DNA of 64,000 nt from Promethearchaeota archaeon (GTDB lineage Archaea > Asgardarchaeota > Lokiarchaeia > Sigyniarchaeales > SOKP01), in contig JAEOTA010000084.1 in assembly GCA_016840085.1 (NCBI GenBank), positions 10,401-74,400 of the forward strand, read 5' to 3'. Position 1 is the first letter of the stretch. The number at the start of each line of letters is the position of its first letter. The notes under the pieces are model-generated. The model was not told the origin of the DNA and ran no database searches. It worked only from the letters and a program-made list of their open reading frames with translations. The position numbers and the translations under genes were made by a program. Of this stretch, positions 21,866 to 54,658 are shown in pieces.

Positions 21866-23527
21866 GTGGAATATATGGAATGGGAGATATCTGATTTTGA
21901 CGCACTAGGAAGAATTGGAAAATTAACTATAAATAAAAAACAAATGAGTACTCCTAATTTATTTCCTGTAGTCCACCCTTATAAAAGTTTTATTTCCACT
22001 TCAGATTTAAAGAAGATAGGTGCTCAATGTGTTTTTACGAATGCTTATATTATCTATCAGAATGCTCAAATACGAGATGATATCTTGAGAAAAGGAATAC
22101 ATTCACATTTAAAATTTGGCGGAATAATCGCAACAGACAGCGGAGCTTTCCAAAAATATATGTACAATAAGAGAAATTTAGAAATTCAACCAAATGATAT
22201 AGAAAAGTTCCAAGAAGATATTGGTACTGATTTTGCCGTAATCTTAGATGAACCTGTGCAACCAGATGATGATTATGAAACAGCCAAGAAGAGAGTTGAT
22301 ATAACCATTGAAAGAGCTAAAGATAATATTAATCGAAGAATAAAAAATGATTGCTACTGGTTTGGACCTATTCATGGGGCTAGGTATGACGATCTACTAA
22401 GAACGAGTACACTTGAAATGAGTAAATTAAATTTTAGTGTTTATGCAATAGGAGGTTTAGTTAAATCTCTTTTAAATTATAGATTTGATTTGGTAATTAA
22501 AATTCTTCTGAATGTAAAAAAGGATATTGTACGCAATAAACCCATTCATATGTTTGGATTAGGATTACCACAATTCTTTTCATTAGCTATAGCATGTGGA
22601 TGCGATCTAATGGACTCAGCAGCATATATTCTATTTGCAAGGGAAAACAGGTATTTCACATTATCTACAGGAACAAGAAAATTAGAAGAATTAGAAGAAT
22701 TTCCATGTCACTGTCCTATATGCTGTGAATATAATCCTAAAGAAGTTTTAAATTTCGACGAAAAATTACGAACTGAATTAATAGCTAAACATAATTTATA
22801 TATTTCTTTTTCTGAATTAAGAACAATACGTCAAGCTATTAAAGAAGGTAATCTATGGGAACTTGTTGAACAACGGATTCGAAATCATCCTACTTTGGTT
22901 AAAGCTTCAAAGTTGATTAAATCATATTTACCTTTATTTGAAAGCCATGAGAAATTGTATAAAACGCATGGTAGGCTATATTCTTCCCCAGAAAGCATCG
23001 GAAGACCTCTGATTTATCGTTATGAATCAAAACTAAAGAATAATTATAGAGTTCCACAAGATGCAAAATATTTAATTATTTTACCTGAATTGGATGTAAA
23101 GGGGGATCAATCACCAAGTATTAAGAAATGGCTAGAGGAATTAGATACTAATTCAATAATTCCTAGAAAATTTCTTCATGTCGCATTTCTCTCTGATTTT
23201 TATGGAATTTTACCCTTAGAACTAAGTTCCTCTTTTCCTATGGGGCAATATGAATCAATAGATCTATTGACCAAAAATGATTTAATTTATCGGGATTTTA
23301 TACAAAAAACAGAATTTTTCTTTAATCTTTATGCACCTCATTATTCGAAAAGTGGAATATTAATACCTGATAAATTTATTAATCAATTTAATGAAATTAC
23401 AGAATTTAAAAAAAAAAATATTATAAATAACTTAACCAAAATGTTGAATTCTAAATTTAAATTAAACGTTGCTTCTTTCCCTAAAATAACACATCTTATA
23501 CAATACTTTAAGAGTGATGAAAAATAA
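21866..23527 (+). CDS. tgtA: tRNA-guanine(15) transglycosylase (archaeosine), no PUA domain apparent
   Basis: GRIG...TP..FPVVHP, TDSGAFQ, HMFGLG.P, DLMDSAAY, CHCPIC, HNL. Confidence 0.95.
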   Translation: MEYMEWEISDFDALGRIGKLTINKKQMSTPNLFPVVHPYKSFISTSDLKKIGAQCVFTNAYIIYQNAQIRDDILRKGIHSHLKFGGIIATDSGAFQKYMYNKRNLEIQPNDIEKFQEDIGTDFAVILDEPVQPDDDYETAKKRVDITIERAKDNINRRIKNDCYWFGPIHGARYDDLLRTSTLEMSKLNFSVYAIGGLVKSLLNYRFDLVIKILLNVKKDIVRNKPIHMFGLGLPQFFSLAIACGCDLMDSAAYILFARENRYFTLSTGTRKLEELEEFPCHCPICCEYNPKEVLNFDEKLRTELIAKHNLYISFSELRTIRQAIKEGNLWELVEQRIRNHPTLVKASKLIKSYLPLFESHEKLYKTHGRLYSSPESIGRPLIYRYESKLKNNYRVPQDAKYLIILPELDVKGDQSPSIKKWLEELDTNSIIPRKFLHVAFLSDFYGILPLELSSSFPMGQYESIDLLTKNDLIYRDFIQKTEFFFNLYAPHYSKSGILIPDKFINQFNEITEFKKKNIINNLTKMLNSKFKLNVASFPKITHLIQYFKSDEK

Positions 23528-23961
23528 TTTTTCTAGATAAAATATACGCTTATGGCCATGAAAATATTAAAGGTACTCATAAAACAACGATAGAACTTAC
23601 AAAAGTTAAAAATTTAACAAAGAAAGGAAATTGCATTATAGGGATTAATTCTACAAAAGCTTGTTTTGATTTAAATTCCACTTTAAAAGAAAAAATAAAT
23701 AATGGAAAAAAAATTGAAATAACATTAAAAGTAGAAAATCTCCAAGATTCTTTCTATGGTTTTGGAAATAAAGAGTTAAGATTATTAGATAAAGAGGATG
23801 TGGTATTTCGTACAAGTAATTATATTTGTAACAGAACTGTGTTGGTTAATTGTACTAAATCATCAAATGAGATAAATCGTGAATTAATTGATAAATTAAA
23901 AATTCCAGGAAAAAGATTATCAATAATATTTGAAATAAATGAGTTAAATGGGAAATATTAA
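23524..23961 (+). CDS. DUF371 family protein (missed by the ORF track; probable ATA start overlapping the tgtA stop)
   Basis: Manual translation: IIFLDKIYAYGHENIKGTHKTTIELTK...LTKKGNCIIGI...VFRTSNYICNRT; in-frame TGA at 23518. Confidence 0.85.
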   Translation: MIFLDKIYAYGHENIKGTHKTTIELTKVKNLTKKGNCIIGINSTKACFDLNSTLKEKINNGKKIEITLKVENLQDSFYGFGNKELRLLDKEDVVFRTSNYICNRTVLVNCTKSSNEINRELIDKLKIPGKRLSIIFEINELNGKY

Positions 23962-31188: not shown

Positions 31189-31485
31189 AATCTAATTCTA
31201 ATAATAAATCTTAGATATTTAAATAATATATATTACGTATTAATCTTACTTACGCAACCCTTAAATAAATTTAAGTAGTTGTTTAATTATTTTTAAGTTG
31301 ATATAATATTAAAATTTACTTTTAATCTGCTTGGATATATAATAAATAGATAATGTGATAGATAAAAAATCTGAAATTTTTCTTATTAAAAATAGAGTAT
31401 ATTAATAAAAATATAATAAGAAAAATAATTATTATAAATAATATAATATAAGTTTAAAATTTTAAAGCAGTATTGGTGTAGGCTT

Positions 31486-31890
31486 ATACAATTCGGGTCG
31501 GATTTAGGAATTAACCAAGAAGATATCGAAAAGATTAGCCCTCAAATCACATTTATAACATCAAATGCGGATATAGAGGCGATAGCTCTAGTTAGTTCCG
31601 AAGGTTATCAAATAGCATTCTCTGCATTACCCCAATATCATGTTGATGGTGATCAATTTTGCGGACTTGCTAGTGCTTTATTGATGACAGGAAGATCAAC
31701 TATTCAAACTCTATTCCAAGAAGATTTAAGTGAAGTGATTGTTCGAGCCGAAAATGGTTATATTGTCATTACAAATGCTGGTAGATTAGTTATTGTTTGT
31801 GCGGGGACAATTATTGATACATTAATGAAGACAGTAAAGGTAATGAGGATCGCCGCCAAGAACCTATACAAAATTTTTGAAGAACACTAA
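31486..31890 (+). CDS. Roadblock/LC7 (LAMTOR2-like) domain protein; probable ATA start (track shows only 31681-31890)
   Basis: Frame is open upstream of 31681: IQFGSDLG...IEAIALVSSEGYQIAF...GLASALL...EVIVRAENGYIVI; GGTG 7 nt before ATA; in-frame TAA at 31444. Confidence 0.85.
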   Translation: MQFGSDLGINQEDIEKISPQITFITSNADIEAIALVSSEGYQIAFSALPQYHVDGDQFCGLASALLMTGRSTIQTLFQEDLSEVIVRAENGYIVITNAGRLVIVCAGTIIDTLMKTVKVMRIAAKNLYKIFEEH

Positions 31891-41082: not shown

Positions 41083-41409
41083 TTATATTTCTAAGTGCTT
41101 CTTTATTGATTTTATAGTACCAGATGTTCTTAAAGGAGAGAAAATTACTCTTTTCCCATTTATATCCCTTATAAGTGTTACTGCTGTTATTATAATCTCT
41201 TTAGTTTCATGAGAGCATCTTATAATCCCTTGATTTTTTTCTAAATCAAGATCTACCAACCATAATCCAATTTTATTGGCTCCTTTCATACCAAAGTATC
41301 GCCATATTGATTGCCAAATAGCTTTTAAAATGTTATTTTGCTCTAATATTAAGTTATCCTCTTTAATTATATTAAAAAGGATATATCTTTGCCTTTCTTT
41401 TTTAACTAT
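41083..41409 (-). CDS. pop5: Ribonuclease P subunit Pop5/Rpp14; probable ATA start at 41409 (track truncates at 41289)
   Basis: Extended frame IVKKERQRYILF...W...FG..G...GIIRC.H...TSGTIK; strong SD GGAGGGGTGA whose TGA is an in-frame stop. Confidence 0.92.
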   Translation of the reverse strand: MVKKERQRYILFNIIKEDNLILEQNNILKAIWQSIWRYFGMKGANKIGLWLVDLDLEKNQGIIRCSHETKEIIITAVTLIRDINGKRVIFSPLRTSGTIKSIKKHLEI

Positions 41410-42130
41410 GATTCACCCCTCCTGAAATTATACTTACATCTGAATCAATTATATCTTCTTTATCTTTATGAATTTCTTCTAACAATAATCTTGGATTTAG
41501 ACCGAAAGCTTTTTTTGCTATTTCTATTGGAATTTCTAAAAGTGAATTGCAGATGCTTATTAAAGCTCTAGGATGGCGATAATCAAACACATTATAAAAA
41601 TTTCCGCTTATAATAAAATTCGCCTTTAATTTAATAGCTAATTGAGTATATCTATATAAATTTCTAAAATTTTTAGATTGGATTTTCTTATCGCTCACCA
41701 TAATTGGAGCTAAAGAGAATTCTATAAATGATTTATTTTGTTTAGATAAGGAAATAATCCCAGCAGAAAGTTTTTTTATTATTTCTGTGTCAGAAAAAGA
41801 GACAATTCCTACTCTTGAATCTTTAGCAGCATGTAATAGTACCTCTCTATTTAAGGATTCAACCGATATAACATCAGAAAAATTATTATAATTCTTTATT
41901 TCTTTTTTAAAATTTCCAATATTAGTTGTTTTCAAATTAATTCGATAAAAAATATTTATATTTGTCTGCTTTTCTATTTCTTTCTTAATCTCTAAAGGAA
42001 TTTTTTTTACATGATTTATAGGCTCTATTATTACATTCTTTATACCTAATTTCTCACAAAAATTTAAACAGCTTTTAATTTTTTTAAAATCTTCAATCTT
42101 TATAGGTAGTCTTGATTCAAAATATGACAA
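41402..42130 (-). CDS. rpp30: Ribonuclease P subunit Rpp30
   Basis: A.KDSRV..., IEFSL, IISG....DYRHPR...NP; adjacent to pop5. Confidence 0.88.
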   Translation of the reverse strand: MSYFESRLPIKIEDFKKIKSCLNFCEKLGIKNVIIEPINHVKKIPLEIKKEIEKQTNINIFYRINLKTTNIGNFKKEIKNYNNFSDVISVESLNREVLLHAAKDSRVGIVSFSDTEIIKKLSAGIISLSKQNKSFIEFSLAPIMVSDKKIQSKNFRNLYRYTQLAIKLKANFIISGNFYNVFDYRHPRALISICNSLLEIPIEIAKKAFGLNPRLLLEEIHKDKEDIIDSDVSIISGGVNHS

Positions 42131-50769: not shown

Positions 50770-51768
50770 TTACTCATATTTAGAACTGGTGAGCACATTA
50801 ATAGATTTTATAGAACTTTCTGTCGTCTTTTCTTCGCCTACTATTTGCATTATTGAATAAATAATATTTCTGGATTCACAAATAATAGGTATCCCGCCAT
50901 ATGATAAAGTAAATAGCCCAATAAAAGAAATCTCTTCAGTATTTGATGTATCTTCAACTTTTGAGAATTTAATCTTACCTGAAGGACAAGCAATAATACC
51001 ATAAAAATTTTCACTATCTTGACCTGAAATTGCAACATAACATAAAAGATCTCCGATTGAACTCCCTTCTGATTCTTCTTTCATTTTCTGGAATGCAACA
51101 TTAGCACTTGCAGAGAACGCCTCTATAGAAATTGGTAAATTTTGTCCGCTAACTTCCCTAGCATCAAGAGTTAACCCAGAAGGGTTAACTAAGCTATATC
51201 TTATAAATATTGGATTCTGAAGAGAGTCTAAAATAGTACTTATTGTGGGTAGTAAATCTGAAGGCCCAGTAGATTCAGGTGTGTATGATACAAAAGGTAT
51301 TTCTGATCCCATTCCAAAAAGATAAATTGCACTTCGCACTTTATCACAAAATTCTTCAATCTCTTTTTCAGATTCATTGCCACTTCCGAAAAATTCTCCT
51401 AATTTTTGTTTTAAATAATACATCGATGTAGCTAGATTGTCTGCATCTAATGGCCATTCTTTATGATAATTATGTACTATTGTTAAAAGAGTTTCATTAA
51501 TTCTGATTGTTATTAGACATACTTTATCAAAATATGAAAATGAAATAACTTGATGTTTAATATTTAAATCTTCCCAATTTTCTTCACTAGCTGAAAAAGC
51601 TGCTGACGCTAAACTAGTGATTTGATTTGGATTTAACTCAATATCACTTTTTCTACCGATTTTTGCTATAGATAGCCCATTTTGATCACACAAAACTATT
51701 AACACAGTACCTTCAGATGCTCGTAAAATGGAGGTTAAATGTTTTATTAGGGATTCTCTTACACTCAT
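50770..51768 (-). CDS. Tandem roadblock-domain protein (start likely ATG 51768; track 51780)
   Basis: VLCDQNGLSIA...SLASAAFSAS and a second LVNPSGLTL...AFSASANVAF unit. Confidence 0.75.
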   Translation of the reverse strand: MSVRESLIKHLTSILRASEGTVLIVLCDQNGLSIAKIGRKSDIELNPNQITSLASAAFSASEENWEDLNIKHQVISFSYFDKVCLITIRINETLLTIVHNYHKEWPLDADNLATSMYYLKQKLGEFFGSGNESEKEIEEFCDKVRSAIYLFGMGSEIPFVSYTPESTGPSDLLPTISTILDSLQNPIFIRYSLVNPSGLTLDAREVSGQNLPISIEAFSASANVAFQKMKEESEGSSIGDLLCYVAISGQDSENFYGIIACPSGKIKFSKVEDTSNTEEISFIGLFTLSYGGIPIICESRNIIYSIMQIVGEEKTTESSIKSINVLTSSKYE

Positions 51769-51940
51769 TAAAAAAACCAAAATTACTTTTTCCTAGCTAA
51801 ATAAAATATTTTTGTGTTATATATTTTAATAAATTTTTATCATTTATTTTAATCGCATTAAAAATTGAATCCTTTAATAAAAAATTTTTTTATTCTTATA
51901 ATCTATTATTACATACTAAATTTAAACTTGATATCAAGAA

Positions 51941-52990: not shown

Positions 52991-53524
52991 TCATTTGTTT
53001 TCAGCTTGAGTTGCGTAATAGATTAACCATTTTGCCATTGCATGAAATGATTCATTAATATTTATATCATCTTTTGAAGAACAAAACACACATTGATTAC
53101 ATTTTGCGTTTATAGCATAATCATTAGCAATTTGAAAATCTACCTCATGATCTGGTAGATCCCATTTCATACCCATAAGTATGATAGGGATAAATCCAGC
53201 TTTTTGCCGAATTATTTTTAGCCATTCTGGTATTTCTCTAAAAGTATCATAATCACTTATATCAAAACAGATAAAAGCTCCACTAGCACCTTTACAATAA
53301 TCCGGTAATAATTCACGAAATCTTTTTTCTCCGGCAAAATCCCATAGTTGCATTTTAACAGCAGCTCCAGTATCAAGAGTTTCAGATTTAGTATGAAATC
53401 CTGCTCCTATCGTCATTTTGTAACCCTCTTCAAACTTTCCAGTGCAGTAGCGTGTTATCATTGCTGTTTTTCCTACACCGCCAGCACCAGCTACAATTAC
53501 TTTAAATATCCATGAGCTATCCAT
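52991..53524 (-). CDS. Rab/Ras-like small GTPase
   Basis: G1 GAGGVGKT, G2 TIG, G3 WDFAG, G4 MKWD, G5 CSSK; no prenylation tail. Confidence 0.95.
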   Translation of the reverse strand: MDSSWIFKVIVAGAGGVGKTAMITRYCTGKFEEGYKMTIGAGFHTKSETLDTGAAVKMQLWDFAGEKRFRELLPDYCKGASGAFICFDISDYDTFREIPEWLKIIRQKAGFIPIILMGMKWDLPDHEVDFQIANDYAINAKCNQCVFCSSKDDININESFHAMAKWLIYYATQAENK

Positions 53525-53800
53525 TTTAATTAATCACATTAAAAATTCAAAATAAAGAACTAGTATATTGTTAAATAATAAAAATATATGTTTAAAAATT
53601 TTTTTCCATTTTTTAAATATCAAAATGTAATATAATTTTCAATTTCTTAATTAAAATTATTGCAAGTTTCTTAAATTAAATAACTTCTTTTTATTTAGGT
53701 ACCCCTCAAAAATAAAAAAGATTTTTATAAGATTTTGTTCTATTATTTTTTAGAACTTAATTTAATAAGTTTATAATAATTAAGGTTGTGATAAGAGAGT

Positions 53801-54118
53801 ATTAAAGACGACGATATCTGTCCATTATGTAGTTTTCCAAAAGAACTATGTATATGTGATAATTTAAGCGCTGATGAACAACAAATAATAATATCTAACG
53901 ACAGGCGAAAATGGGGGCGGGTTGTCACAGTCATCACCTTCGTAGGAAATTTTGATGTTAATCTGAAAAATATTTTGACGAAAGCTAAGAAAAAATGTGC
54001 CTCAGGAGGAACTGTTAGAAATAATGAAGTTGAGCTTCAAGGAGATCACCGATTCAAGATGAAAAAATTATTAATAGACTTAGGATTTCCAGAGGAAAAT
54101 ATTCTCATTCAAGAATAA
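53801..54118 (+). CDS. sui1: Translation initiation factor aIF1/SUI1 (eIF1 homolog); probable ATT start; missed by the ORF track
   Basis: Manual translation: IKDDDICPLCSFPKELCICD...RRKWGRVVTVI...KKKCASGGTV....VELQGDHR...LLIDLGF; in-frame TAA at 53792. Confidence 0.95.
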   Translation: MKDDDICPLCSFPKELCICDNLSADEQQIIISNDRRKWGRVVTVITFVGNFDVNLKNILTKAKKKCASGGTVRNNEVELQGDHRFKMKKLLIDLGFPEENILIQE

Positions 54119-54217
54119 TCATTGATATCTTAGTATGAATACTAAATTCAATCTATTGTAGAATTAAATACTACAAAATGGATAACTATATTAAAAAATC
54201 TAATTTTACTATTGTTT

Positions 54218-54658
54218 ATGGGTTATACTATATACAAAGTAGTTTTTAAGGCATTTGAGCAATCTGAGAGCAAAAACCTTAATTTAAGTTTTAGAAGCAT
54301 TTTTTCTGAAAAACCAATTTCTATCCCTGCTAGAATTATTTTTGAGTTAAAGAGATTAAGTGAAGAACGTTCCGACATAATTAATTTTCAAAATATCGAA
54401 GAAGTTTTAACCATTGGAAATACATCATCTAAAGATACACATAATTATTATATTGTTATCTTATTTACAAATAAATCTAGCGGGATAAAACAAGGATATT
54501 TAATAGGGAACCTAAAAAATATAGGGGATATTTTAATAGGATATTGGCCATTTAATAAAGAAAATATATCTTTCTCTCCTGAAATAATTCATAAGGAGTT
54601 TAATGATATTATAAAAAACCCACAACATTATAATGATATCTGTCTTATTTCTCAATAA
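54218..54658 (+). CDS. Hypothetical protein (track start TTG 54212)
   Basis: ORF track. Confidence 0.7.
   Translation: MGYTIYKVVFKAFEQSESKNLNLSFRSIFSEKPISIPARIIFELKRLSEERSDIINFQNIEEVLTIGNTSSKDTHNYYIVILFTNKSSGIKQGYLIGNLKNIGDILIGYWPFNKENISFSPEIIHKEFNDIIKNPQHYNDICLISQ

Follow-up and report, generated by a model that had tools for sequence, protein, structure and literature searches.

The gene for the start-codon fidelity factor aIF1 (SUI1) in this genome lies in a frame where no ATG, GTG or TTG precedes the conserved N-terminus. The locus therefore raises two questions: where translation of aIF1 begins, and whether the codon used there could allow the factor to limit its own synthesis. The window analysed was a stretch of 64,000 nucleotides from contig JAEOTA010000084.1; it belongs to a metagenome-assembled genome that is 98.8% complete and contains a sole aIF1 copy.

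The aIF1 gene, its probable start codon and its predicted leader

The features of the locus were as follows.

53714..53731, + strand: BRE/TATA-like promoter block AAAAAAGATTTTTATAAG, the top-conserved upstream block in the family alignment
53783..53792, + strand: Shine-Dalgarno-like (SD) motif AGGTTGTGAT, complementary to the 16S 3' end at 8 of 10 positions; the two mismatches are central
53788..53805, + strand: out-of-frame six-codon GTG...TAA mini-frame; its GTG lies inside the SD and its TAA overlaps ATT-AAA
53789..53794, + strand: two in-frame stops, TGA (53789-91) and TAA (53792-94), 4 and 3 codons before ATT; TGA in 45 of 45 close genomes
53801..53803, + strand: inferred start codon ATT (AUU), aligned with ATG, GTG, TTG or CTG in other archaea
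53801..54118, + strand: single-copy aIF1/SUI1 coding sequence of 105 codons and a TAA stop
53807..53812, + strand: GAC GAC (codons 3-4); GAC in 40 of 45 close genomes at both positions
53819..53857, + strand: four-cysteine zinc-knuckle motif, aligning to 4MO0; 5' of any canonical start
53903..53920, + strand: basic loop 1 (RRKWGR), counterpart of P. abyssi R31-Y32-G33-K34; 5' of any canonical start
53975..53977, + strand: first in-frame canonical codon, TTG (codon 59), from which only 47 residues would be made, lacking both knuckle and basic loop

To judge from its profile and structure matches, the gene product is an ordinary aIF1. It matched PF01253 (E = 1e-17, 64.6 bits against a cut-off of 25.5) and NF002096 (114 bits, above the cut-off of 98), and it aligned from its third residue with the structure of M. 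jannaschii aIF1 (4MO0, E = 6e-25). The zinc knuckle CX2CGLPX3C-hydrophobic-C, present in 64% of archaeal aIF1 (PMC6237735), retained all four cysteines and the proline, with SF in place of GL. In basic loop 1, which is required for 30S binding (PMC6237735), K, W and R stood at the positions aligned with P. abyssi R31, Y32 and K34; these are conservative changes. The first-pass annotation had described a complete SUI1 gene, its frame closed by the TAA at 53792, with no canonical codon ahead of the N-terminus and with an SD-like motif at 53784-92; all of this was borne out and the coordinates were verified. The first canonical codon, TTG 53975, is followed in frame by ATG 54059. The divergent neighbour of aIF1 is a Ras-family small GTPase gene (window 52991-53533, - strand); downstream, an ATG in another frame occurs 17 nt past the aIF1 stop, and a 170-codon frame (window 54146-54658, + strand) had no Pfam or NCBIfam match.

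After the TAA, the frame reads GAG AGT ATT (53801-03) AAA GAC GAC GAT ATC TGT (53819). The three codons between the stop and ATT varied freely and even included TAG, and are thus non-coding. ATT itself was found in 44 of 45 close genomes, where the commonest codon at each of seven internal isoleucine columns occurred only 19–37 times; the codon after it was AAA in 45 of 45. The AUU start proposed by the first-pass annotation could be extended to a near-cognate start throughout the Lokiarchaeia family: 59 of 59 genomes, representing 8 genera, had ATT (54), ATA (3) or ATC (2), and none had ATG. This tally comprised 22 genomes of the same genus (ATT in 22 of 22), 30 family genomes picked blind to the start codon and 7 others.

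Upstream, the motif GGTTGTGAT (53784-92) lies 8 nt 5' of ATT 53801, and the 16S 3' end of this genome is the usual one, GATCACCTCCT. At clear ATG starts genome-wide, the spacing from GTGAT to ATG was 3–8 nt; at the aIF1 ATT it was 8 nt. Within the SD region, TTG TGA was retained in 45 and AGG in 44 of 45 close genomes. Transcription would start near 53752-53757, producing a leader of about 45–50 nt, if the distance from promoter to transcription start is that of archaeal promoters in general. A leaderless start from TTTATAAT at 53770 was rejected, this element being unconserved whereas the block at 53714-31 is conserved. A sigma-70 promoter scan of the upstream region scored below chance and is irrelevant here.

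The consensus fold contained no conserved structure over leader, SD or start. GAC is a rare aspartate codon, constituting 13% of Asp codons genome-wide, and the other Asp columns of aIF1 were mostly GAT. GAC GAC is nevertheless retained at the nucleotide level; pairing between these codons and the SD had a mean probability of 0.07 and is not supported. A small GAC/UGUC hairpin just 3' of the start (window 53807-53822) was predicted in single sequences and absent from the consensus; it was disrupted where Ala comes after Cys, and was not kept in all genomes.

The initiator tRNA that was found had a normal CAU anticodon and A1-U72. A special initiator tRNA was rejected on the evidence of this one gene, from an incomplete search in which ARAGORN returned only 13 tRNAs for the genome; that number suggests many multi-intron tRNA genes. 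The initiator tRNA gene itself (contig C22, near 51652-51786) seems to contain two insertions (introns).

Near-cognate starts elsewhere in the genome and among relatives

It had been cautioned in the first-pass annotation that other genes here also have near-cognate starts, and this caveat was both correct and large. For 8–10 other genes in this genome, the conserved region began well before any ATG, GTG or TTG; genes with such starts included DUF371, Pop5, a Roadblock protein, a profilin-like protein, an AN1 finger, E2 and a tRNA-binding protein. Comparison of orthologs by reciprocal best hits (288 pairs with another genus and 66 with another family) suggested that AUH starts serve at least 2–3% of conserved genes, as a lower bound. 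In a census anchored on strong SD motifs, 230 genes had a canonical codon and 72 lacked one; an in-frame near-cognate codon was present in 57 of the latter, against 13 and 5 in the other frames. About 45–57 strong-SD genes (~15%) needed ATA, ATT, ATC, CTG or ACG. In three other genomes (300–400 kb each) the same census produced 3, 2 and 1 near-cognate cases, too few genes for lineages to be compared.

Since AUH starts are routine in this lineage, AUU on aIF1 is unremarkable by itself. Moreover, five Lokiarchaeia genomes appear to use ATT or ATC as the start of uS12; AUU can therefore support a ribosomal protein and need not be very weak in Lokiarchaeia, where it may be only mildly so. Other ATA (or neighbouring ATT/ATC) starts behind an SD were observed at DUF371 (23521-23958, + strand), Roadblock/LC7 (31447-31887, + strand) and Pop5/Rpp14 (41086-41412, - strand); the AN1-finger gene may start at GTA, and the Roadblock gene of genus g13 has an ACG start.

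The first-pass annotation had proposed asking whether the non-AUG start of aIF1 was more conserved than those of other genes, and it was. As controls, five genes that have an AUH start here were traced in 30 genomes drawn from the same 8 genera. Canonical aIF1 starts occurred in 0 of 8 genera, against 4–8 for the controls: orthologs with ATG, GTG or TTG were present in 8/8 genera for DUF371 and Pop5, 6/8 for Roadblock, 5/7 for a 92-aa protein and 4/8 for E2. DUF371 had AUH in only two other genomes, Pop5 was mixed, and Roadblock had ATA or ATT throughout its own genus. The controls were picked for being AUH, a choice that favours them; they are five of probably over 100 AUH genes, the genera are related, and equally fixed genes may exist. 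General conservation does not explain the fixation of the aIF1 start, because the Roadblock and E2 proteins match or exceed aIF1 in sequence conservation. ATT was likewise kept in second copies of aIF1, which are about 60% identical. This pattern points to selection against a canonical start and for a weak one.

Across the archaea, the comparison proposed earlier supported fixation of AUH within the family and failed to extend it to the domain. Near-cognate aIF1 starts were found in 8 of the 28 Asgard families sampled; 15 had ATG (Jordarchaeia mostly), four had GTG and one was ambiguous. The sister family had ATA in part, the rest being TTG, GTG and one ATG. ATA was also found in f5, Baldrarchaeum and f18, and ATA or ATT in part of f17, while CTG was found in f7 and part of Thorarchaeota (GTG in other Thorarchaeota). 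Among the best 80 matches, an uneven sample, the named non-Asgard archaea had ATG in 64 of 69 cases, TTG in three, ATA in one and probably CTG in one. The near-cognate start is, then, not pan-archaeal and is patchy in Asgard. In a set of 30 Asgard genomes selected for non-ATG aIF1, near-cognate starts were seen in 0/29 for aIF2-beta, 1/30 for aIF1A and 5/30 for uS12, all five being Lokiarchaeia. The use of different weak codons at aIF1 in different Asgard families argues for selection on weakness, rather than on one sequence.

Several further differences were observed. aIF1 lacked the zinc knuckle at twelve loci in several Asgard families; the start of these genes was ATG or GTG in all but the ambiguous f19. 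Two loci of family f6 have an in-frame mini-frame of four codons that opens with ATG and whose TGA directly precedes the aIF1 ATG. The present genome contains two aIF1A paralogues (C60:57828 and C43:42630).

Proposed negative feedback and its closest alternatives

The best reading of these patterns, held with moderate confidence, is that aIF1 is subject to negative translational feedback through its AUU start. The gene would be transcribed with a short leader, on which the SD would set the 30S subunit so that AUU 53801 occupies the P site. There, the ordinary CAU initiator tRNA would initiate with a third-position mismatch, a step that comparison strongly supports. Since the fidelity factor destabilises initiation complexes on non-AUG codons in other archaea, aIF1 should be made more slowly when it is abundant and faster when it is scarce, which would set the stringency of start-codon choice. 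Selection would keep the codon weak, and this is the presumed reason why aIF1 never reverts to ATG in the family, unlike other AUH genes. The set point would be lax enough to accommodate the few per cent of other genes with AUH.

A fidelity role in vitro has been shown for archaeal aIF1 in S. solfataricus (PMC4705826; PMC6237735): both AUG and AUU mRNA were bound in complexes without aIF1, and only AUG mRNA with it (PMC4705826). In P. abyssi, aIF1 hinders full tRNA accommodation (PMC6237735). The intact zinc knuckle and basic loop of the present protein favour feedback, and by analogy the Lokiarchaeia factor would discriminate against AUU. Against feedback, P. abyssi aIF1 stabilises SD-led mRNA on the 30S subunit, which is a positive effect (PMC6237735).

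Two established systems invite comparison. According to PMC4705826, which draws on Butler, Springer and Grunberg-Manago (1987), bacterial infC (IF3) is translationally autoregulated via its AUU start; here too, the gene of a start-fidelity factor opens at AUU behind an SD, and the same negative loop is predicted. Unlike infC, however, AUH is common in this genome, and the loop is proven in E. coli whereas here it is predicted; nor is aIF1 homologous to IF3 (PMC4705826, PMC8576121). Eukaryotic eIF1/SUI1 is autoregulated via a poor-context AUG, as PMC4705826 and PMC6237735 relate from Ivanov et al. (2010). eIF1 is homologous (PF01253), and both genes have a suboptimal initiation site on their own mRNA, kept across many genomes. 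The weakness of aIF1 resides in the codon, however, rather than in Kozak context, its initiation is SD-led without long scanning, and its start is patchy across Asgard (AUH, CUG, GUG, UUG or AUG by family). As a protein, it shares family, zinc knuckle and basic loop with the aIF1 of M. jannaschii (4MO0), P. horikoshii (5ZCY), P. abyssi and S. solfataricus; its start sets it apart from most of the non-Asgard archaea sampled. In having a suboptimal start of its own, conserved beyond background, the gene would belong with infC and eIF1, although in that class the weak start is rare and inefficient, and here it is not rare and may be only mildly weak.

The arrangement resembles that of infC, though on an eIF1 homologue. 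No report of archaeal aIF1 autoregulation was found in the literature searched, which excluded many subscription journals. Should the loop prove real, a start-fidelity factor would be limited through its own weak start in each of the three domains. The archaeal case would then combine the eukaryotic protein (aIF1/eIF1) with the bacterial device (AUU behind an SD), and would do so in the archaeal group nearest to eukaryotes. Tentatively, a wider scheme may be suggested, in which Asgard aIF1 forms a feedback loop via a near-cognate start, the AUH, ACG and CUG genes of Lokiarchaeia are tuned by aIF1 level, and the whole is a counterpart and possible forerunner of eukaryotic eIF1 stringency control. 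The group so tuned might conceivably take in E2, Roadblock, profilin-like and Pop5 genes and, in relatives, uS12, although this is likewise doubtful. Whatever the mechanism, a gene finder that accepts only ATG, GTG and TTG would shorten or overlook aIF1 together with a few per cent of proteins in these genomes.

Without any feedback, the same weak start could instead hold aIF1 at a constantly low level; low output would then be what was selected in the weak codon and the mismatched SD, and use of AUU would not respond to aIF1 in the physiological range. The rationale is that excess aIF1 would shut off many AUH, UUG and GUG genes, and this genome does rely on many weak starts. Such a cap would account equally for fixation of the start, and it is consistent with the two central SD mismatches, which are fixed, and with an SD as far from the start as the observed spacing extends. 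However, an excess of aIF1 that repressed AUH genes should repress its own AUU also, which is feedback; furthermore, any weak SD could provide a cap, yet in many Asgard families the start codon is the weak part. Constant low dosage was considered unlikely.

Alternatively, given a good SD, AUH may be read throughout Lokiarchaeia with nearly the efficiency of AUG; aIF1 would then have acquired ATT by drift in the ancestor of the family, and kept it because its whole 5' region is frozen for some other reason. The AUH background and the uS12 starts accord with this, as do the unusually invariant neighbouring codons (AAA 45/45, GAC 40/45) and the presence of AUH at Roadblock and E2 in every same-genus genome examined. 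Such laxity does not predict that five of five controls should revert in at least four genera and aIF1 in none. Nor does a frozen region fit easily with a constant AUH start in g12, g13, g15, g17 and g18, genera that differ from one another in SD, spacer and codons 2–5. Weak aIF1 starts also recur in families outside Lokiarchaeia, where three universal controls are almost all canonical. Drift in a lax lineage was judged quite improbable, and feedback retained as the preferred reading.

Other possible start sites and sequence error

Translation might begin elsewhere. The candidates are ATC 53816, before the first cysteine, TTG 53975, and GTG 53788; the last is out of frame and would require either a frameshift or re-initiation at the TAA that overlaps ATT. 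Conservation lends this some colour, as GTG at -13 and TTG-TGA at -15 were present in 45 of 45 close genomes, and an in-frame GTG inside the SD, four codons upstream, occurred in 5 of 59 main copies (three in g13, one in g18 and one of the second-copy type in g14), and generally in second-copy aIF1. However, GTG and TTG-TGA are part of the SD itself, with no separate SD to serve them. The GTG mini-frame is cut short by a stop in one g12 genome, and in g13 and g18 it is in frame; it was judged an SD by-product, as was the TTG-TGA start-stop. The in-frame GTG of the copies above was likewise read as SD, though its use as a start is possible there too. ATC 53816 is separated from the SD by 23 nt and shows synonymous variation, while the codons ahead of it are conserved as protein (KDDD) in the close genomes. 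Initiation at TTG 53975 would strip the knuckle and basic loop from the only aIF1. A start at any of these sites is very improbable.

Sequencing or assembly error, or a pseudogene, has a negligible probability, despite the metagenomic origin of the assembly and its 7.6% contamination: 59 of 59 family genomes have ATT, ATA or ATC, so conservation already refutes an error, the frame is intact at 89–98% identity within the genus, and the base, which the first-pass annotation had wished to see confirmed, had no variant at 53801-03 among the matches listed for contigs from three studies, one run of which may be the source sample.

Possible decoys were observed near some starts. At three loci an in-frame ATG lies directly 3' of the SD TGA, probably too close for use; in f17 an ATG occurs three codons before an ATA that a relative uses alone, and in g17 ATG-TAG precedes ATT. 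The second aIF1 type (~60% identical), present in some family members, was found at five loci behind GAGGTG with ATT, and the copy of this type in one genome (G007) was interrupted by stops.
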